Origin: a virus
Strand: one strand, 5' to 3'
UHGV virus genome: UHGV-0060500
Length of the DNA stretch: 52,459 bases
How positions within the stretch are numbered: position 1 is the first letter of the stretch; every line of letters begins with the position of its first letter. A program made the position numbers and the translations under genes. Positions 9,428-51,651 of this stretch are shown here, piece after piece. The notes beneath the pieces are model-generated. The model was not told the DNA's origin. It ran no database searches and saw only the letters and a list, made by a program, of their open reading frames with translations.

Positions 9428-9690
9428 CCCATTAGCATTAGATAGCAGTGACTGACCGCTGAACAGATCCCGCCGTTGCGTGATATTTGTTTTTCGCTTC
9501 GCAGCGACACCGGATTTTTAAAGAGCTTAAGGTAAGTGCCTTTTTGTGCCTTCAGTTATCTTTTTCCTTGCGTCTTTGCAAGTATGGCCTTACCTTGTCT
9601 GCAAGTTTACAAAATGGAATTTTAAGATCAAGGCTTAAAATACACGTTTTGTGACTTGCATCAAACTTTTTGAGGTTATAGGGTAGCGAC
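9428..9690. promoter_or_regulatory. Divergent immunity-region control region between the replication operon and the cI-like repressor
   Basis: 263 bp non-coding region between divergent operons; contains the repeated TGCAAGT elements and one copy of the dispersed GTTTACAAAATGG motif (9605-9617). Confidence 0.5.
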
Positions 9691-10338
9691 ATGAAAACAA
9701 AATGGTATGACTTAGCAAAGCAGCTCATGCGGGCGCAGGGCATGAGCCAGGATTCACTCGCGGATCGTATGGGGATAACTAAAGGCGGCCTGTCACACTG
9801 GCTGAACGGTCGCCGAGAGCCAAATCTTGAAGATATTGCGCGGATTATGCGCGAGCTTGGTCGTCGGCAGTTTACTGTTACACATGATGGCATGGTCATT
9901 GATGATTCTGTTTCTAATACACTTCAGGCCGTGCCGCCGCGTGATTTAGGTAGTTACCCGGTTATTGACTGGAAGGACACAGTAAACAATATGGATGACG
10001 CAAGGCGTTCAGCATTACGACACGTTACGACTAGCGTTATTTGTTCAGATGACAGTTACTGGCTGGTTGCCAAAGGTGAATCAATGAACGCGCCGCAGGG
10101 GTTGAGCATCCCGGCGGGGACGATGATACTTGTGGACCCGCACGCGCCAGCTATTGACGGCAAACTGGTTATAGCCCAGCTTGAGGAAGGGCAGATACCG
10201 ACGTTTAAACAGTTGATTATTGATGGAGGTCAAAGGCTTTTACGTTCGCTCAATCCGCTGTATCCGCCAATCCCTATGAATCCAGAATCAAAAATTATAG
10301 GCGTGGTGGTTGATGCGAAGATCGTAAACCTGCCATAA
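9691..10338 (+). CDS. cI: CI-like repressor (HTH_XRE plus S24 LexA-like peptidase domain)
   Basis: 215 aa; N-terminal HTH (QDSLADRMGITKGGLSHWLNGRREP); C-terminal GESM...K self-cleavage motif pattern. Confidence 0.85.
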   Translation: MKTKWYDLAKQLMRAQGMSQDSLADRMGITKGGLSHWLNGRREPNLEDIARIMRELGRRQFTVTHDGMVIDDSVSNTLQAVPPRDLGSYPVIDWKDTVNNMDDARRSALRHVTTSVICSDDSYWLVAKGESMNAPQGLSIPAGTMILVDPHAPAIDGKLVIAQLEEGQIPTFKQLIIDGGQRLLRSLNPLYPPIPMNPESKIIGVVVDAKIVNLP

Positions 10339-10369: not shown

Positions 10370-10838
10370 CCTGGGAAACACCAAAACGTAAACAGAAAAC
10401 GTTATTTATTATTTAAATATCAATGGCATATAAAATATTTTAAAAAAGTATACAAAATGGATTGACTCGATGTTTTACGGGGCGTATATTGCGAGTCAAA
10501 GGAAGGGCGCAGGTAACAAAAGCAACTTCCTGGCACTTTAAAAATCAGGCTTAACACCTTGTCAACCGTGGAGTAACTCCCCGATGGGGGACCGAAAGCG
10601 GCACTGATAACAAGGCGCATGGGGTGTTTAAAGCGTTACATCCCCCACGAAACCGCACGCAAGGCGACGAGTCAGCTTGCTTGGAGTGAGCAAGGTCACG
10701 CCGGGAACGGCGATGATTGCGGGATTAGTTGAAAGATGTTAAGCCGCTCATTAACAATCTGGTCAGCCGCTGGAAGTGCGGCAATTAACGAAGATGATTT
10801 TTTATTAAGTATCATCAAGGATATACGGAGATCAGATT
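10370..10838 (+). promoter_or_regulatory. Long GC-rich untranslated region (candidate early leftward-type promoter and antitermination/structured RNA region)
   Basis: About 470 bp without a plausible ORF, several GC-rich hairpins (CCCCGATGGGGG, GGGGTGTTTAAAGCGTTACATCCCCC), one dispersed-motif copy at 10448-10460. Confidence 0.3.
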
Positions 10839-14501: not shown

Positions 14502-14543
14502 CAGCGTGATTGCGATCACATAAATATACATTTTGTATTGTGA

Positions 14544-18095: not shown

Positions 18096-18254
18096 AGTTT
18101 ACAAAATGGCGTCATTGCGTGATATGGATCACATAATGGCGCTTTTCGCCTTGTTCTGGTGTATCCATTTTGTATACTTCAAGCAAACAAAATGCTCTTT
18201 AAAAATCCGGCAGCGCTGAAATGCGTAGAAATCACCTGAAAAGGAGAGAGCATT

Positions 18255-23407: not shown

Positions 23408-23521
23408 GGTGTTGGACAACCATAAATGTGATCTGTATCACAATGTATACGAAATGGCATTGTTCCGGCAGTGCCGTTTTGTTATATATGAGCCACAGAA
23501 AGACGGAGGGGAGGCAAGAAG

Positions 23522-37773: not shown

Positions 37774-38472
37774 ATGATCCATGTTCGTACAGGACAATTT
37801 GCTGCCGTGGTGAACGGTAAGCGCTATGAGTTTAATCCTTGCTTTGCTGCGATGGCTAAAATCGGCAACGATAGTGAGCTTGTCGAATATTTCGCACTTA
37901 TCCACGGCGGCAAATATCCATCACGATTGCCAGCAGATCCAGACCTACGCAATCGCATTCTGGCGCGGTGTTATGGTGAAATAGTTAAGACATCAATGCA
38001 CATCCTGAAATGTTGCTCAGACGACGAAATAGGCCCGTTATTGGGCGAATGCTGGTTTACTCCTTCGGGTAAGTTAAAGTTAAAGCCCGGATTAATGCCG
38101 ATCGAGGATATCATCACGCTTGCGCAGCACTGCATGTACCACGGTCTTATTGGTGATGGCCCGGAAGAAGAGTCCGGGGAAATCCCGGAAGGGGAATATA
38201 AGCCGACTTTTAACGTCCTTGAATTCGTCTATTCTGCCGTTGCTCACCTGGGCTTGTCAGAATCGGAAGCATGGAATATGACAATGACCGGATATAGGGC
38301 CGCTGTACGCGCTAAAACGCCGCCAGACGAAAGAAACGAGAAAAGCAAGCCAAACATTCACATAAATAAACGTGCTTATGACGAGCAAATGGAGGCCGCT
38401 AAAAAGGCACTAGAAAGAATGAAAAATCGTGAGCAAGAAAAGCCCGGTAGATCCGGGCGTTTTGCTAATTGA
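37774..38472 (+). CDS. Putative tail assembly chaperone
   Basis: About 233 aa between the major tail and tape measure genes; SD AAGGTGA. Confidence 0.45.
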   Translation: MIHVRTGQFAAVVNGKRYEFNPCFAAMAKIGNDSELVEYFALIHGGKYPSRLPADPDLRNRILARCYGEIVKTSMHILKCCSDDEIGPLLGECWFTPSGKLKLKPGLMPIEDIITLAQHCMYHGLIGDGPEEESGEIPEGEYKPTFNVLEFVYSAVAHLGLSESEAWNMTMTGYRAAVRAKTPPDERNEKSKPNIHINKRAYDEQMEAAKKALERMKNREQEKPGRSGRFAN

Positions 38473-38839
38473 AATCTTTAATTGCTGTACCTGGTGAACT
38501 GTGTGTGATTGTATTGTATACAGACTTTGCCTTACTGCGATCTTTCCATTCTTTTAGGATGCAGTTATCAAACTTTGCGATAACCCTTGAAGGGGATAAT
38601 TCTTCAACATCCATGTAAGTAAATCCTATCGTGCTGGTTACTGAATACCATACGTGATAACTATAATTACCGTCATGCTCGATTCTTTGTGGTTCCCCCA
38701 TTATTTTATTCACTTGCTCACAAGTCATTCCAACTTGCAAATTTTTATCAGCTAACTTAACGAAATCAGTTGATCTTGCGCACCCTGTAAGAGCTAAAGC
38801 CATAACACCAATGAGAACCGCTTTGATTATTTTTTTCAT
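38465..38839 (-). CDS. Lipoprotein (124 aa), antisense moron in the tail module
   Basis: Signal peptide with lipobox LTGC (MKKIIKAVLIGVMALALTGC). Confidence 0.6.
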   Translation of the reverse strand: MKKIIKAVLIGVMALALTGCARSTDFVKLADKNLQVGMTCEQVNKIMGEPQRIEHDGNYSYHVWYSVTSTIGFTYMDVEELSPSRVIAKFDNCILKEWKDRSKAKSVYNTITHSSPGTAIKDFN

Positions 38840-38849
38840 GATTTACCCC

Positions 38850-39509
38850 TTAATTCCAGTTGCAAGCGTTTTTCACTTTGTCGATGTGGTTATAAAGACC
38901 ATCAATGTTAAACACTGCTTTCTCAATGTCGCCAGCTTCCGGCACTACTTCAATGATGAATTGTTTTTCGTTAACCAGTTTTTTAATCATTGGGATGGCT
39001 TTTTTGCCGTCCCATAATCCAAGAGCTTTATAATTAGTTGACCGCCACCACTCAGTAGCTACAGCTTTGTGAACGCCGATCCGGTAGTTAATATAAGTAG
39101 TGTCCCCGGCGTCAGTTACATGGTGTGACCATGCTACGAACATTTTTGTTTTATTACCCTGGCAAGCGATTGTTAATACCGGTTTATTCTTATCCTGTGC
39201 CTTCAGTGTCGGGAAAGCATCAAGACTTCCGCTGAATTGTTCTGCTTTCACAAAAAGGAATACGTTTTTTGCGTCCTGCATATCATCTTTTCTTTCAACT
39301 ACAAGCCACTGTTTACCAGCATTTTCTTTTTCTAACTGTGCATCGTATGCGGCTTGTTTTGCTTGTTGTTCTGCAAGCCATTTAGCATTTTTCTCTGCTA
39401 ATGCTTGTTGCTCTTGATTGGTCACTATAGGCGCTTTTTCATTATCCTCATTGCAACCAACCAGACCCAATACCGCCGCAATCATTGCCACTTTTGCTAA
39501 CCGTTTCAT
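38850..39509 (-). CDS. Lipoprotein (219 aa), antisense moron in the tail module
   Basis: Signal peptide with lipobox LVGC (MKRLAKVAMIAAVLGLVGC); Gln/Ala-rich linker. Confidence 0.6.
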   Translation of the reverse strand: MKRLAKVAMIAAVLGLVGCNEDNEKAPIVTNQEQQALAEKNAKWLAEQQAKQAAYDAQLEKENAGKQWLVVERKDDMQDAKNVFLFVKAEQFSGSLDAFPTLKAQDKNKPVLTIACQGNKTKMFVAWSHHVTDAGDTTYINYRIGVHKAVATEWWRSTNYKALGLWDGKKAIPMIKKLVNEKQFIIEVVPEAGDIEKAVFNIDGLYNHIDKVKNACNWN

Positions 39510-39636
39510 AACCCACCACGCTAACTTGATTTACTGACCATTCCCTTTAGCTTCCTTATACAAAATGGAGTCGTTGAAGTAAAGCCATTTTGTATAAAAT
39601 AGATACACAGATCACATTTTTGCATGAGGTTAAATC

Positions 39637-41983: not shown

Positions 41984-42012
41984 AACCCCGGTGCAATGCC
42001 GGGGTTATTTTT
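41984..42012 (+). terminator. Rho-independent terminator after the tape measure gene
   Basis: AACCCCGGTGCAATGCCGGGGTT followed by ATTTTT. Confidence 0.7.
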
Positions 42013-42065: not shown

Positions 42066-42320
42066 TCACTTATGAGTGCCTTTCACGCCACATAACTTGT
42101 TATAGGCATGGTGCTCAACAATTAACCAAACCTTCAAATCTTCGCTAAACAGCCTCCAATCAAGATTGATATCCATTTTGTATCCGTAACCGTCGCGTAA
42201 CTTTTTGGGGTAAACTTCTTTTCTCAGAAAGGCTTTAAGTAATTCCTTACCTTTCTTGATGATCCGGTCCTGTGCGTTTTTCTGTGCTTTCAGATTTCTG
42301 TCAATCGCTACCAGTTTCAT
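42066..42320 (-). CDS. Small basic protein (84 aa), possible RelE/YafQ-like toxin; antisense moron
   Basis: C-terminal ...DW...GTHK loosely resembles the YafQ C-terminal pattern (EPDW...RTGTHAALF) as recalled; low certainty. Confidence 0.4.
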   Translation of the reverse strand: MKLVAIDRNLKAQKNAQDRIIKKGKELLKAFLRKEVYPKKLRDGYGYKMDINLDWRLFSEDLKVWLIVEHHAYNKLCGVKGTHK

Positions 42321-42337
42321 AACTCACCCCATCATCC

Positions 42338-42493
42338 TTAGTTAAGTGCCTTCAGGAAGAAGTCCCGGTATTCATCTTCTTTCGCATTCATCATGAATTG
42401 ACCGTATTTGAATGCGTCGTCGAAACCCTTAACGATTGCTATTTCCACTTGTTCGAATGCGTTATTTAGCATTACTACTACATAGCGTTTCAT
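42338..42493 (-). CDS. Small protein (51 aa) upstream of and coupled to the 84 aa gene (possible antitoxin)
   Basis: ORF ending 17 bp before the next start; MKRYVVVMLNNAFEQVEIAIVKGFDDAFKYG... Confidence 0.35.
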   Translation of the reverse strand: MKRYVVVMLNNAFEQVEIAIVKGFDDAFKYGQFMMNAKEDEYRDFFLKALN

Positions 42494-42660
42494 TTTGGGC
42501 CTCCTTCGTTGGTACTACTTTCTTCTTGCTTTCTATATACATCTTGTTGCGTGCTATGTGAAGCCATTTTGTAAACTAGCTATAATCATTGTGACAATGA
42601 TCTTATTTTTCGCGTAGAAGCGCGTAAAGATATATACAAAATGTAACTTGTGGGGGTTTT

Positions 42661-43014
42661 ATGCCGGAAGTGTTCAGATGGACGCCGCAAAGAAGCTACA
42701 GCGTGACCAGGAAGCCAGACGTATCTGTTGTTAAGCTGGGCGATGGTTATGAGCAAAGACAGGTAAAAGGTATCAATCCATTGCTTGATAGCTACACCCT
42801 GGTGTTTAAAGGCAGTAGCGCCGGATGTGGTGATGGTGGAAACGTAGCAATCCAGGCGGAAGCATTCTTGAGGGCGCGCGGCGCGGTCGAGGCTTTTTAC
42901 TGGTCGCCGTCAATGGATAACGTGCAAAGGCTTTTTGTCTGTCGGCAATGGAGCATGACTAAAGACGGGCCTTTGTACACGCTAAACGCAACGTTTGAGC
43001 AAGTTGTTGGCTAA
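42661..43014 (+). CDS. Minor tail protein M (lambda gpM homologue)
   Basis: 117 aa; FRW...GDGYEQRQ...FYWSP...TFEQVVG matches lambda M closely as recalled. Confidence 0.85.
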   Translation: MPEVFRWTPQRSYSVTRKPDVSVVKLGDGYEQRQVKGINPLLDSYTLVFKGSSAGCGDGGNVAIQAEAFLRARGAVEAFYWSPSMDNVQRLFVCRQWSMTKDGPLYTLNATFEQVVG

Positions 43015-43211
43015 TGGGGGTTGTTATGTACGGGACTTGTGTAGTTGACAAAACTTACGCTTTTACATTGTTTGACGACTATGAGATCAACGACCTTACT
43101 GTAAAAGCTGACAACGGCGATATATGGTATCTTCACGACGTTGGTGATGGGTACGTTGGGTGTAGATCCCGGGAAGGGAAGGAGGTTTTATTTTTGGTTG
43201 ATGGCGTATAA
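43014..43211 (+). CDS. Hypothetical protein (65 aa)
   Basis: ORF coupled to gpM and followed by a terminator. Confidence 0.4.
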   Translation: MGVVMYGTCVVDKTYAFTLFDDYEINDLTVKADNGDIWYLHDVGDGYVGCRSREGKEVLFLVDGV

Positions 43212-43213
43212 AC

Positions 43214-43243
43214 ACGACCCCGCGCGAAGCGGGGTTATTTTTA
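43214..43243. terminator. Bidirectional rho-independent terminator
   Basis: GACCCCGCGCGAAGCGGGGTT followed by ATTTTTATT; between convergent genes. Confidence 0.65.
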
Positions 43244-43367
43244 TTCTATTTCCATTAATGCTATATTTTCTGCTATCGTTTTCCAGTCCAGATCTACAGC
43301 ATGAACGCCAAATACTATCAACCCCATTATTATTAGCGCCAAAACTTCTATTTTTATAATCAGTCAC

Positions 43368-43616
43368 CTATAAGTTATCACGCAGATAATTAACGCCCTT
43401 ATCAGTGACGAATGAATGGTTAACCTGGTTTTCATCCGTCATGATGATGAATAACTTTTCATGTAGGTATTTCGCTTTCGGGTACAGCGTTAAACAGACC
43501 TGGTACAGTATCCCGCGCTCAATCAGCAAATCAATAAATTCGTGTTCATGATAACCGATGAGGCGGGCGGCCTGTTTCAACGTGTACACATAATCACCGT
43601 GATTGCGCCGCCCCAT
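43368..43616 (-). CDS. Small HTH-like protein (82 aa), antisense moron
   Basis: YTLKQAARLIGYHEHEFIDLL resembles a helix-turn-helix. Confidence 0.4.
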   Translation of the reverse strand: MGRRNHGDYVYTLKQAARLIGYHEHEFIDLLIERGILYQVCLTLYPKAKYLHEKLFIIMTDENQVNHSFVTDKGVNYLRDNL

Positions 43617-43625
43617 GTTGCCGCC

Positions 43626-43973
43626 TTATTTATCGAATGCTGAAAGGTTATCGATACAGAAATCTTTCGCCGCTTTTTCGTATTCGCGTTTTGCTTCTGG
43701 ATCGTCAGCCGGGAAACCTTTTGCGTGTATTTCACCAGGGCAAGACTGGTCCATAGAATCTGCATAATAAGCAGTGAAGCTACCATTAATATCTTTCGGG
43801 TTCATATCTTCCACCTCATCAACTATCTGTACCGGATTAGCAGCATATTTCACTGGATGGCCTAAACTACATTCAAGAATCCTGCCTTCTTCCAGGGCTA
43901 CTTCTTCGCTATCAAATAATCCGAAACACTCCTTGCTACCACTTAACCACACATCAAGACTGTATTTTTTCAT
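43626..43973 (-). CDS. Hypothetical protein (about 115 aa) with N-terminal region paralogous to the upstream small gene
   Basis: MKKYSLDVWLSGSKECFGLFDSEEVALEEGRILECSLGHPVKY; SD GAGG before the ATG at 43973. Confidence 0.45.
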   Translation of the reverse strand: MKKYSLDVWLSGSKECFGLFDSEEVALEEGRILECSLGHPVKYAANPVQIVDEVEDMNPKDINGSFTAYYADSMDQSCPGEIHAKGFPADDPEAKREYEKAAKDFCIDNLSAFDK

Positions 43974-44142
43974 TTTTGTTAGCCTCATATTTGACAGGTT
44001 CGATCTGGTATCCCAAAAGGCGGTCATCCTCAGCAAGTAAAAGCGCGTCAACCAATGCTTCACCCTCGTCGTCATACAGGGCGATAACCTTTTCCCTACC
44101 GTCTGTCATGAATACCGTCAACTTCCATAGCTTTTCAGTCAT
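43954..44142 (-). CDS. Hypothetical small protein (about 62 aa), paralogue of the N-terminus of the next gene
   Basis: MTEKLWKLTVFMTDGREKVIALYDDEGEALVDALLLAEDDRLLGYQIEPVKY; SD GGAGGTG. Confidence 0.45.
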   Translation of the reverse strand: MTEKLWKLTVFMTDGREKVIALYDDEGEALVDALLLAEDDRLLGYQIEPVKYEANKNEKIQS

Positions 44143-44271
44143 AACGCACCTCCGCGCCATTTTGTTAACTATGCTTCCGTTTGAGTAAAATATACATATT
44201 GTAAAAACCGCGATCAATCCATTTTGGTATGATTTAGCGTGACGCAGATCACAGAATGACAAGGTGAGAAA

Positions 44272-44976
44272 ATGCGCAATATTCCGAGAGAAATGATTAT
44301 TGATTCCGTCGATGCCGGAGTCGGCGCGGTAATTGACTTGTTTGAATTAGACCTCACGCCCCTGGGTGGCGAGGTTATCCGCTTCCATTCCGGCGTGAAT
44401 GGCTATTACGGCCCGGTTATCTGGAAGGGGGTGGCTTACAACAGCTACCCTATCGAGGCCACTGGCTTCGAAATGAAAAACGAGGGTGTCTATTCACGCC
44501 CGCAAATGGTTGTAGCCAACATTGGCGGCCTAATCACCGGGATGAATAACGATTTCAACGACCTGCGAGGAATGAAAGTTACACGCCGCCAGGTGGAAGT
44601 AAAATACCTGGACGCCATCAACTTCCCCAACGGCAACCCGGATGCAGATCCGTCTATCGAGGCGGTGTCTTTTTACGTCGTTGAGGCGATGAGCGAAGAA
44701 ACAGCCGACCAGGTGCAATATGAGCTGTCAACGCCAATTGATGCTGACAAGGCGGTTATCCCAGGGCGCACAATCCTTGCTGACGTTTGCCAATGGCAAT
44801 ATCGCGGCGACGGTTGCGGATACAGTGGCGGCCCTGTAGCTACTGATAAAGACGAATCGACCAGCGATCCAAAGCTGGATAAATGCAGCCACCGCCTGAG
44901 CGGTTGCCGTTTACGTTTCCCGCGCCCGAATCCGTTACCAATTTCATGTTTCCCAGGATCGAGCAAGGTGGGTTGA
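44272..44976 (+). CDS. Minor tail protein L (lambda gpL homologue)
   Basis: 234 aa; CQWQYRGDGCGYSG cysteine cluster and overall similarity to lambda L as recalled. Confidence 0.85.
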   Translation: MRNIPREMIIDSVDAGVGAVIDLFELDLTPLGGEVIRFHSGVNGYYGPVIWKGVAYNSYPIEATGFEMKNEGVYSRPQMVVANIGGLITGMNNDFNDLRGMKVTRRQVEVKYLDAINFPNGNPDADPSIEAVSFYVVEAMSEETADQVQYELSTPIDADKAVIPGRTILADVCQWQYRGDGCGYSGGPVATDKDESTSDPKLDKCSHRLSGCRLRFPRPNPLPISCFPGSSKVG

Positions 44977-51453: not shown

Positions 51454-51651
51454 TGTATTCACCTTACTGTTTGTTTTACTGTCATTTGTTGTTCGTGATG
51501 ATCCACCCATCCGATGAGCAAATCACCGCAGAAGCTATCATTTCGTATGTTGATATAGATCAAAAAAATACATTATGTATAAGCCCAAAGTGTAACACAG
51601 ATCACAAAATGGTAGAATTGTTTAGTTAATTAACAAAACGGAGTTATTGCG

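Follow-up and report, generated by a model that had tools for sequence, protein, structure and literature searches.

Lambdoid morons are independent units of promoter, gene and terminator that lie between late genes, and in lambda itself the tail genes M and L are adjacent. In the immI regions of P22 (mnt-arc-ant) and P1, an antirepressor-family gene follows small genes, forming a separate unit in or beside the late genes; in P22, this unit sits within the late region. The KilAC domain has been assigned protein-directed activities: in AriS it inhibits the SOS response (PMC9043618), while CreP, a stand-alone KilAC protein, blocks cell division, causes filamentation and co-precipitates FtsZ (bioRxiv 10.1101/2024.01.05.574328). 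DNA binding by the domain is reported in neither of these studies. Two motifs, AKxLxL and TxKG, have been described for CreP and P1 KilA (bioRxiv 10.1101/2024.01.05.574328).

The window analysed here, the whole 52,459-nucleotide stretch of UHGV virus genome UHGV-0060500, is a prophage from E. coli and belongs to the mEp021 (mEpimmI) type. An antisense unit of three genes (A, B and C) had been predicted between the tail genes gpM and gpL, and both the unit and its position are confirmed: all three reading frames lie on the minus strand at the predicted coordinates, tightly packed, and the two flanking genes match their Pfam families (Table 1). In addition, the prophage of E. coli M1/5, which is 100% identical, carries the identical three coding sequences in its RefSeq annotation. 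The G+C content of the cassette (0.39-0.46) differs from that of the flanking tail genes (0.49-0.54), a difference in base composition of the kind by which morons are recognised, and it is similarly low in two other antisense units of the window. The neighbouring antisense unit encodes a ParE-like protein (PF24732, ParE_like; E 9e-12) with a 51-aa partner, and a VasI-like unit is present in some relatives. The paper describing the mEpimmI group reports nothing functional on the A, B and C genes (PMC11893012).

Table 1. The antisense cassette, its control elements and its flanking tail genes, in coordinates of the window.
Feature	Coordinates	Strand	Properties
gpM	42661-43014		PF05939; one flank of the cassette
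Bidirectional intrinsic terminator	43216-43236	both	found by scan of both strands; common to the cassette and the gpM-o65 unit
tm, small hydrophobic signal-peptide-like ORF	43241-43342	-	TTG-started 33-aa remnant in the window
Gene C	43368-43616	-	82 aa; starts 9 nt past B
Gene B	43626-43973	-	115 aa; 20-nt overlap with the end of A
Gene B C-domain (aa 57-115)	43626-43805	-	orphan, nearly invariant
Gene B N-domain (aa 1-52)	43818-43973	-	paralogue of A; ββαβ (predicted); hypervariable
Gene A	43954-44142	-	62 aa; ATG start preceded by GGAGGTG; phrog_29559
Gene A product			acidic, pI 4.4; ββαβ fold (predicted); tail disordered beyond residue 52
ACAAAATGG in the 5′ leader	44157-44165	-	follows the -10 hexamer and precedes A's ribosome-binding site
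Sigma-70-like promoter TTGATC-17-TATATT (predicted)	44189-44217	-	consensus scan, 9/12 positions
CCAAAATGG, variant of the signature word ACAAAATGG	44219-44227	-	adjoins the -35 hexamer
CRP-consensus-like dyad TGTGATCTGCGTCACG	44238-44253	-	exact TGTGA-N6-TCAC match; centre about 62-64 bp upstream of the putative transcription start
gpL	44272-44976		PF05100; other flank of the cassette

The product of gene C had been described as an HTH-like protein. An HTH-like stretch is indeed present (a weak UPF0175 match), which suggests an HTH-like fold, but the protein is not a generic HTH protein; by profile comparison, C is a stand-alone KilAC/ANT domain protein (PF03374). In particular, residues 10-82 align with positions 23-105 of the 108 positions of the PF03374 profile (29.4 bits, E 1.1e-6), above the Pfam gathering cut-off of 25.3 bits, and the precomputed Pfam assignment of C homologues agrees. 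Residues 71-74 (TDKG) match the TxKG motif exactly, and residues 16-21 (AARLIG) differ from AKxLxL conservatively. Beyond the group, the closest relatives are the C-termini of Ant/Rha proteins (30-38% identity), and neither a Bro-N, KilA-N, AntA/B nor Rha N-terminal domain is found in C, whose 82 residues comprise the KilAC domain only. Its predicted pI is 7.0, and its identity across loci is 88-100%.

The A protein is paralogous to the N-terminal half of B. The similarity claimed for them in the original prediction is above chance according to BLASTP (E 7e-5; 35% identity across 52 aa), to the alignment of their family profiles by hhalign (score 21.5 over 44 columns, versus a null of 9.3±2.2 with a maximum of 17.3 from 300 column shuffles) and to their predicted folds. 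AlphaFold models of the paralogous domain yield ββαβ in both cases, with the same order of elements in A (E3-12, E17-23, H26-37 and E42-52) and in the N-terminal part of B (E2-10, E13-20, H23-37 and E42-49). Within the motif said to be common to both proteins, the similarity holds, but the PVKY portion is particular to this B allele, as other alleles read ARDFxVTPVQ; here, the PVKY..AN motif is encoded by a 20-nt DNA repeat with 80% identity between its copies (43837-43856 and 43979-43998). Both proteins are strongly acidic, with net charges of -6.5 (A) and -12.3 (B).

These modules, which had been described as sensor-like, are putative sensors at most; each is a small acidic ββαβ domain whose fold matches are all generic. 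In Foldseek searches of BFVD with A and the B N-domain, every hit was to a small phage protein of uncharacterised type, DUF7336 among them, with E values of 0.004 or higher (target TM-score, TMt, 0.65-0.8 for the best-fitting small targets), and there were no informative PDB matches for the cassette proteins. Membership of DUF7336 was rejected, as 14 members of the A family have no Pfam sequence match to it even at E values up to 10. A relationship between B and HepS/HEPN proteins was considered because HepS is a prophage defence protein and B has a weak PDB profile match to it (E 0.17); this was rejected as well, since the aligned N-terminal part is predicted to be ββαβ and not all-helical, the conserved Rx4-6H motif is absent, and the likeness is confined to a short C-terminal helix.

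The C-domain of B has the invariant columns SMDQSCPGEIHxKGFPADDP...DFCIDNL. A search of 1.84 billion representative proteins with the B profile yielded 14 hits, with no annotated relative among them; all were fragments, close relatives or low-complexity repeats. The domain also occurs alone in other phage contigs, as a protein of 56-60 aa, and in the two contigs L049 and L050 its genomic context consists of small unknown genes only.

The order A-B-C is found in 47 of 48 related loci, and in the sole exception A alone is replaced. This distribution indicates a fixed feature of the lineage, not a sporadic defence island; patchy presence among close relatives, another mark of morons, was not observed. 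Likewise, of 5426 complete E. coli genomes, 35 contain the cassette and 25 contain the gpM-o65 unit next to it, once per genome each, and no cassette-free relatives were seen. The A protein, found in 47 of 48 loci, has identities of 44-100%. The dN/dS ratios of A (0.28), B residues 1-50 (0.22), B residues 71-115 (0.07) and C (0.11) show that all three genes are under purifying selection, and the mean distances of C and the B C-domain (0.05-0.08) correspond to the level of conservation of the tail genes.

The 129 bp upstream of the cassette are 84-92% conserved; the synonymous sites of gene L have a dS of about 0.7. Taken by itself, the promoter's consensus match is no better than chance (5 found, 5.0 expected), but both of its hexamers are invariant or nearly so in 35 distinct upstream sequences. 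The signature word ACAAAATGG is among the two most over-represented 9-mers, with 13 copies in the window versus 0.8 expected; its leader copy is found in 46 of 47 loci, and it also flanks the repressor gene (9609 and 10452). If ACAAAATGG is the repressor's operator, then the cassette would be silent in lysogens. The variant copy next to the -35 hexamer, CCAAAATGG, reads CCAAAACGG in some relatives. Moreover, the layout of word, 1 nt, -35 hexamer, 17 nt and TATAxx recurs at 10452, in a PR-like promoter (10452-10490), and is identical at 42572 (the ParE cassette) and 39593 (the VasI-like cassette).

Further upstream, the dyad TGTGATCTGCGTCACG agrees with TGTGA-N6-TCACA at 9 of 10 core positions, and the window contains four TGTGA-N6-TCAC sites versus 0.29 expected. 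The half-sites are retained in 44 of 47 related loci, with the central 4 nt in 10 forms. The dyad is centred at 44245.5, and 28.5 bp separate this point from the -35 hexamer's first base, which would place the dyad at about -62.5 to -63.5 from a putative start; this is not exactly -61.5, the class I CRP position (others being -72.5, -82.5 and so on). Three of the four dyads deviate from the CRP consensus in an identical way (TCACGC), which could mean that the binder is phage-encoded.

At the other end, the terminator hairpins have energies of -16.3 and -19.0 kcal/mol and correspond to TERM_11/TERM_12 in the mEp021 annotation. The cassette had been described as flanked by a bidirectional terminator; the terminator exists, but it lies at the 3′ end only, outside the range assigned to the cassette. 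Between gene C and the terminator, 35 of 49 loci contain the tm reading frame (MKIEVLALIxMGLIVFGVHA..., 38-49 aa), whose ancestral ATG (43355-43357) is ATA in the window; in L049, this reading frame is likewise located behind the stand-alone B C-domain.

On this evidence, we tentatively favour a fixed, moron-type operon of mEp021/mEpimmI phages that forms an insulated accessory module, directed at the host or at a repressor, with the KilAC protein as its effector; a regulatory or host-modulating role of the cassette is plausible. According to this proposal, a self-contained minus-strand unit, consisting of a promoter region, A, B, C, an optional membrane or secreted peptide and the bidirectional terminator, would have been inserted between M and L. 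Late transcription of the tail genes would have to cross the cassette along the other strand, with terminators insulating it, so that the operon is probably on while late transcription is off, in the prophage or in early infection. Control of its expression by cAMP-CRP is possible. The C protein would be the probable effector, acting through protein-protein contact with a conserved target, candidates for which are the host division or SOS machinery and the group's single conserved repressor. The acidic A and B proteins, which are unlikely to bind DNA, may modulate or direct C, with the invariant C-domain of B as a constant interface and the variable ββαβ modules as a specificity surface. Several observations weigh against this proposal: the chance-level promoter match, the position of the dyad and its recurrent departure from the CRP consensus, the occurrence of ACAAAATGG around the repressor gene, and a lack of co-variation between A and the B N-domain across loci (rho 0.16-0.24).

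A new system of anti-phage defence or superinfection exclusion, in which the ββαβ modules of A and B sense invader proteins and C, with or without the membrane peptide, stops the infection, is rather unlikely. It draws on the separate low-G+C antisense unit with its ParE-like and, in some relatives, VasI-like neighbours, on the existence of an optional small hydrophobic peptide, on the ability of a stand-alone KilAC protein to arrest growth (bioRxiv 10.1101/2024.01.05.574328) and on variability. The B N-domain has the highest mean pairwise distance (0.40) of all protein segments in the tail region of about 14 kb and, together with A (mean distance 0.28), is the most variable and fastest-evolving there; it reassorts independently of the flanking segments. 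Both shuffle as modules, and fast evolution combined with such shuffling resembles an arms race. However, dN/dS is far below 1, no domain of an enzymatic or pore-forming effector was detected, in the window the start codon of the tm peptide is gone, and the near-universal presence of the cassette is unlike typical defence cargo. A search of PADLOC-DB 2.0 at E values up to 1 identified no family for A, B, C, o65, the ParE-like protein or its 51-aa partner, and the earlier label of a defence cassette has no positive support, the cassette not being one that comes and goes. Co-variation of A or of the B N-domain with segments of M, L, K, I, H or J is weak or absent. In particular, no tail protein of the phage itself, not even J, is linked with the alleles of the B N-domain (rho at most 0.26), so that a HepS-style tail sensor with self-evasion is not indicated.

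It is more doubtful that the cassette confers a secondary immunity like that of P22 or P1 immI, with C as a minimal antirepressor of the group repressor and A and B as anti-antirepressors or dosage controllers. The resemblance is one of family and layout, as C belongs to the antirepressor-associated KilAC family and the operon, within the late region as in P22 immI, has small genes before an ant-like gene. Further, C is nearly invariant, like the repressor of this single-immunity group (PMC11893012). Against this, C has no counterpart of the N-terminal domain found in characterised antirepressors (Bro-N, AntA/B, Rha or KilA-N), and A and B are acidic ββαβ proteins, unlike the ribbon-helix-helix Arc and Mnt. 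No LexA box is found in the promoter region, and the cassette region has no match to any Rfam family, including the c4 antisense RNA of P1 immI.

Equally doubtful is a toxin-antitoxin-like or abortive module, where C would be a bacteriostatic toxin that blocks division, the C-domain of B would neutralise it and A would be a paralogous competitor or chaperone. Toxicity has been published for a stand-alone KilAC protein (bioRxiv 10.1101/2024.01.05.574328), acidic proteins are encoded upstream of the neutral C with tight or overlapping junctions, and a ParE-like toxin pair forms the antisense unit next to the cassette, with a promoter of similar layout. However, toxicity of C would follow by analogy only, A, B and C have no match in NCBIfam, and no known toxin or antitoxin family or domain is recognised in them by Pfam, NCBIfam or PADLOC. 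In addition, some loci accommodate extra genes (gp72-like or an HNH endonuclease) between B and C, which makes an obligatory toxin-antitoxin coupling less likely.

With similarly low confidence, the cassette could be a new kind of prophage module that responds to the nutrient state through cAMP-CRP, in which the paralogous, fast-diversifying A/B recognition pair gates a minimal KilAC effector and so controls an arrest of host division or of the SOS response; it would then be a three-component system for defence or addiction of an undescribed type, or else a switch for secondary immunity. An early lytic function in host takeover or anti-defence, with A and B as small acidic inhibitors repressed in lysogens by the ACAAAATGG binder, is the least likely, as the PR-like promoter layout, the presence of the word around the repressor gene, the fast evolution of these small proteins and their fold, shared with many small uncharacterised phage proteins, are set against a location odd for early genes, the same word in the ParE-like unit, and no homology to known anti-defence proteins in searches made without a dedicated library.

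KilAC/ANT is among the commonest domains of temperate phages, and here it occurs in a minimal, stand-alone form, invariably accompanied by these two partner proteins. If gating of a KilAC effector by A and B is true, these would be the first defined partners for a long-uncharacterised domain, in a tractable E. coli phage; since phages of the mEp021 group are amenable to growth and engineering in E. coli K-12, identification of partners and targets is straightforward. The combination of invariant parts (C and the B C-domain) with hypervariable, reassorting parts (A and the B N-domain) suggests that the effector is constant and its specificity changeable, an arrangement known from conflict systems. 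This phage group is common in the human gut, and the signature word shared by the promoters, together with the CRP-like dyads, hints that its regulation has a layer not yet described. The cassette would be of local interest if it is merely an accessory regulator.

Compared with known systems, the cassette resembles the classical lambdoid morons in having its own promoter region (here predicted) and terminator, a lower G+C content and a location between tail genes; it differs from them in that it is not variably present and is wired with the phage's recurrent regulatory word. Similar to P22 and P1 immI, it places an ant-family gene behind small genes in a separate unit in or beside the late region, but it has neither ribbon-helix-helix repressors nor a c4-like Rfam match, and C is of a truncated Ant type for which an antirepressor role would be drawn from analogy. 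DUF7336 and other small ββαβ phage proteins share the fold of A and the B N-domain (E about 0.01-0.1); for DUF7336 the resemblance is at the fold level only, and the fold is generic. AriS of Listeria phage phi10403S and other Ant/Bro/Rha-KilAC regulators of temperate phages have a C-terminal PF03374 domain like that of C (PMC9043618), which in AriS acts on host physiology through the SOS response; however, AriS has an AntA/AntB N-terminal domain and is encoded in the early region, whereas C is the KilAC domain alone. Finally, CreP of Acinetobacter baylyi ADP1 (103 aa) and C (82 aa) are both single KilAC domains without an N-terminal partner, and C retains TxKG (T71-G74) and the AKxLxL-like stretch AARLIG, a likeness known here from these motifs. 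CreP belongs to a CRISPR-Cas locus, where it is repressed by a CRISPR-like RNA, whereas C comes third in a phage operon, after the genes for two acidic proteins.

Between the tail genes gpM and gpL, three minus-strand genes (A, 62 aa; B, 115 aa; C, 82 aa) lie in a complete temperate prophage of 52.5 kb, which belongs to the mEp021/mEpimmI group of E. coli phages described in 2025 (PMC11893012). The three-ORF antisense cassette of the original prediction is confirmed at its positions: over 43200-44280 the window matches, with 100% identity, the chromosome of E. coli M1/5, whose RefSeq annotation has exactly the CDSs A, B and C, and, with 83-90% identity, phages mEp021, mEp010, mEp013, mEp044, mEp515, mEp554 and MagusPhagus. 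In a comparison set of 45 related loci from IMG/VR plus annotated E. coli and phage records, pairwise dN/dS is 0.28 for A, 0.11 for C and, within B, 0.22 for residues 1-50, 0.51 for the linker (51-70) and 0.07 for residues 71-115; the flanking genes gpL and gpM have 0.04 and 0.06. A, B and C are real genes, each with its own PHROG family whose function is not annotated.

A bidirectional terminator had also been predicted to flank the cassette. The hairpin scores on both strands, and its counterpart in the mEp021 record is annotated as two terminators; however, it closes only the 3′ end, where it is common to the cassette and the gpM-o65 unit, while at the 5′ end lies an intergenic region of 129 bp. 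The ORF o65 (dN/dS = 0.10), found in all relatives, is an extra gene of the late operon; we know of no counterpart between M and L of lambda.

Coordinates of the cassette, its surroundings and recurrent DNA elements (in the window unless a related locus is named)
Feature	Position	Strand	Description
A	43954-44142	-	62 aa; GGAGGTG six bases 5′ of ATG
B	43626-43973	-	115 aa; 20-nt overlap with end of A
C	43368-43616	-	82 aa; starts 9 nt past B
gpM	42661-43014	+	PF05939; one flank of cassette, then o65
o65	43014-43211	+	conserved 65-aa ORF, phrog_3249; start overlaps gpM stop
gpL	44272-44976		PF05100; other flank of cassette
Bidirectional intrinsic terminator	43216-43236	both	hairpin -16.3 and -19.0 kcal/mol
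Cassette promoter, sigma-70-like	44217-44189	-	TTGATC-17-TATATT
CCAAAATGG, variant of signature word			adjoins -35 hexamer of cassette promoter
Dyad TGTGATCTGCGTCACG	44253-44238	-	9/10 core positions of CRP consensus TGTGA-N6-TCACA
Signature word ACAAAATGG	44165-44157	-	5′ leader of cassette
CRP-consensus-like dyads	14505-14520, 18118-18133, 23427-23442, 44238-44253		near-match 51591-51606
ACAAAATGG/TACAAAATG	5388, 9609, 9697, 10452, 18101, 18165, 35438, 39560, 39585, 42173, 42564, 44157, 51604
Inverted pairs of ACAAAATGG	9600-9660, 39556-39597
CI-like repressor gene	9691-10338	+	HTH_3 and Peptidase_S24; same strand as late genes; terminator 3′
Strong promoter-like site	10462-10497		TTGACT-17-TATATT, past repressor terminator; bracketed by 8-bp inverted repeat TTGACTCG/CGAGTCAA
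VasI-like unit	38465-39509	-	before tape-measure gene; G+C 0.37-0.42
ParE-like unit	42066-42493	-	between tape-measure gene and gpM; promoter region about 42530-42601
Signal-peptide-like ORF	43241-43357	-	counterparts L049 3164-3301, L001 2938-3075

The proposal that A is paralogous to B's N-terminal half is supported by four comparisons that agree. In particular, a single BLASTP comparison aligns 52 residues at 35% identity (E = 7e-5), and hhalign aligns 44-46 columns of the family profiles (14-16 sequences for A, 28 for B) with E from 3e-4 to 3e-3, its score of 21.5 exceeding all 300 column-shuffled controls (mean 9.3, sd 2.2, maximum 17.3). Structure prediction of the shared domain, as originally suggested, yields the same ββαβ topology in the AlphaFold models of A and the B N-domain (core pLDDT 85-91), and 9 of the 50 top matches in a BFVD structure search are common to both. 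The motif that first drew attention is present, and its 'PVKY..AN' part overlies a 20-nt direct repeat (16/20 identical); in B, however, this part is peculiar to the window's allele, others having 'ARDFxVTPVQ', which makes it likely that A and B underwent local gene conversion in this lineage. Several homologues of A (for example, L003 3287-3442 and L004 3787-3975) are labelled 'transporter' in RefSeq and nr, a name unsupported because A is a soluble acidic ββαβ domain and no Pfam or NCBIfam match backs it.

B is a two-domain protein, with a hypervariable A-like part (residues 1-52) and an almost invariant C-domain (residues ~57-115; SMDQSCPGEIHxKGFPADDPxAKREYEKAAKDFCIDNL, 24 invariant columns). 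AlphaFold leaves residues 55-88 uncertain and predicts a single long helix at 92-113. The C-domain is an orphan: when 1.84 billion representative proteins were searched with a profile, only 14 hits were returned (close relatives, fragments, two stand-alone 56-aa forms or low-complexity noise). The stand-alone forms, found in L049 (a viral contig of 121 kb) and L050 (a phage contig of 58 kb), lie among small genes without assigned function and begin where B has its nearly invariant Met57. Inside the window's B allele only, a strong ribosome-binding sequence, GAGGTG (within 43803-43817, minus strand), lies 6 nt 5′ of the Met57 codon; an internal start there, giving a separate 59-aa product, is conceivable.

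This invariance stands beside extreme modular variability. Across about 14 kb of the tail region in related loci, mean pairwise protein distances are 0.40 for the B N-domain and 0.28 for A, versus 0.05 for C, 0.08 for the B C-domain and 0.05 for gpL; even the receptor-binding end of J reaches only 0.31. Nucleotide identity falls from ~0.9 to 0.56-0.7 exactly over A and the B N-domain and then returns to ~0.9. B N-domain alleles reassort independently of all neighbours (Spearman rho ≤ 0.26 against A, M, L, K, I, H and J segments).

The order A-B-C is kept in 47 of 48 loci, the exception having an unrelated 52-aa ORF in place of A. Among 5426 complete E. coli genomes, the cassette occurs in 35 and the gpM-o65 unit in 25, always one per genome, and no relative without the cassette was seen. 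Some relatives have additions: B and C can be separated by a gp72-like gene or an HNH homing endonuclease, and C can be followed by two small hydrophobic ORFs and by ORFs of 67 and 58 aa. The HNH insertions are of homing-endonuclease type; an HNH/AP2-like pair lies between B and C in an IMG/VR locus (L028 3357-3842) and, in mEp021, an HNH endonuclease is annotated between tail genes I and J (L001 6167-6733); the window has neither. A signal-peptide-like hydrophobic ORF (MKIEVLALIxMGLIVFGVHA..., 38-49 aa) follows C in 35 of 49 loci and directly follows the stand-alone B C-domain in the unrelated contig L049; the window copy may be inactive because its ATG start codon has become ATA (43355-43357).

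The 129 bp 5′ of A are 84-92% conserved across related loci, although synonymous sites in the adjoining gpL have diverged (dS about 0.7). Of 47 loci, 44 retain the half-sites of the dyad, whereas ten versions of its central four bases occur; this is the signature expected of a site bound by a dimeric protein. Dyads of the form TGTGATC-N4-RTCAC(G/A) occur four times in the window (0.29 expected); three share the identical right half TCACGC, with the same deviation from the CRP consensus, and TGTGATCTGTATCACA, at 23427, is perfectly palindromic. The mEp021 counterpart of the dyad at 18118 falls within an annotated 'terminator', TERM_4. From spacing, the cassette dyad is centred around -62.5 to -63.5, slightly off the class I position. 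Further, ACAAAATGG (13 copies, 0.8 expected) and TACAAAATG (12 copies; expectation about 0.6-0.9 for either) are the two most over-represented 9-mers of the prophage. Their copies are mostly intergenic, and some flank the repressor gene; ACAAAATGG adjoins the -35 of the PR-like promoter beside that gene (10452-10490) and of promoter-like sites of both other antisense units (42572, 39593). This recurrence suggests that the cassette is wired into the phage's own regulatory vocabulary. The dyad is a candidate site for host CRP or a phage protein, and ACAAAATGG a candidate UP-like element, activator site or repressor operator. The mEpimmI paper describes no motif like ACAAAATGG (PMC11893012); the cassette upstream region has no LexA box, and no Rfam family was found anywhere in the window.

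The tail region holds three minus-strand units in all, with G+C of 0.37-0.46 versus about 0.5. In the VasI-like unit, one product (219 aa) has a type VI secretion VasI domain (PF11319, E = 1.2e-15) and the other (124 aa) matches DUF7738 weakly; unlike the other two units, this one is variable cargo, being in only 16 of 44 relatives. The ParE-like unit, in all related loci, encodes an 84-aa ParE-like toxin (PF24732, E = 9e-12) with a 51-aa gene (phrog_29810) upstream, and is closed by its own bidirectional terminator (41984-42006). Its promoter-like site has the cassette layout (ACAAAATGG, 1 nt, TTCACA, 17 nt, TATAT), and just upstream of it, at 42585-42601, lies ATCATTGTcACAATGAT, a perfect palindrome. 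On its way from gpH to gpL, late transcription has to pass two bidirectional terminators and to traverse two of the units in antisense direction, consistent with the Q-type antitermination known from this group (PMC11893012); the cassettes would therefore be expressible only with late transcription off.

With a pI of 4.4, A and B are strongly acidic and unlikely to bind DNA; C is neutral. The invariant parts (C and the B C-domain) should contact something conserved, be it the other invariant part, a protein of the host or the one conserved repressor of the group, and the variable ββαβ modules something variable. We tentatively favour a fixed accessory operon, on in the prophage or early phase and possibly under cAMP-CRP control, in which C would act as the effector, with a conserved protein as its target, and would be modulated or directed by A and B. 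The 'defence cassette' of the original prediction gained no positive evidence; a new defence or exclusion system is unlikely. No known defence family was matched. Fold searches gave generic matches only, and a weak match to HepS was examined and rejected. Rather improbable are an immI-like secondary immunity switch and a toxin-antitoxin-like module with C as the toxin; early genes for host takeover or anti-defence that the lysogen would repress are more doubtful still. Interest would rise if C with A/B proved to be a new conflict or immunity system. Overall, the original reading is partly supported: its cassette, paralogues and terminator stand, and its 'HTH protein' needs correction.

The genes were already annotated as hypothetical or KilAC proteins in a described phage group, whose near-core genes include a 'KilAC-like antirepressor' and for which the function of the cassette genes is not given (PMC11893012); new are the paralogy, the domain structure, the variability beside invariance, the lineage fixation and the conserved dyad with the signature word. 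C does contain a helix-turn-helix-like stretch, TLKQAARLIGYHEHEFIDLLIERGIL, with a sub-threshold UPF0175 match, but it should be read as a stand-alone KilAC domain (PF03374, ANT, 'phage antirepressor KilAC domain'; 29.4 bits, curated threshold 25.3), a name also given by PGAP. Its nearest out-group relatives, at 30-38% identity, are C-termini of 200-300-aa Ant/Rha proteins of Vibrio, Cronobacter, Hafnia and Stx phages. 'HTH protein' is too simple because documented KilAC activities target proteins, not DNA. The KilAC domain of AriS from Listeria phage phi10403S suffices for SOS inhibition, probably via RecA (PMC9043618). CreP, a stand-alone KilAC protein of 103 aa from Acinetobacter baylyi, acts bacteriostatically, makes cells filament and co-precipitates FtsZ, with similar effects for P1 KilA and phi11 Gp07 (bioRxiv 10.1101/2024.01.05.574328); the TxKG motif noted for CreP's family is also present in C.
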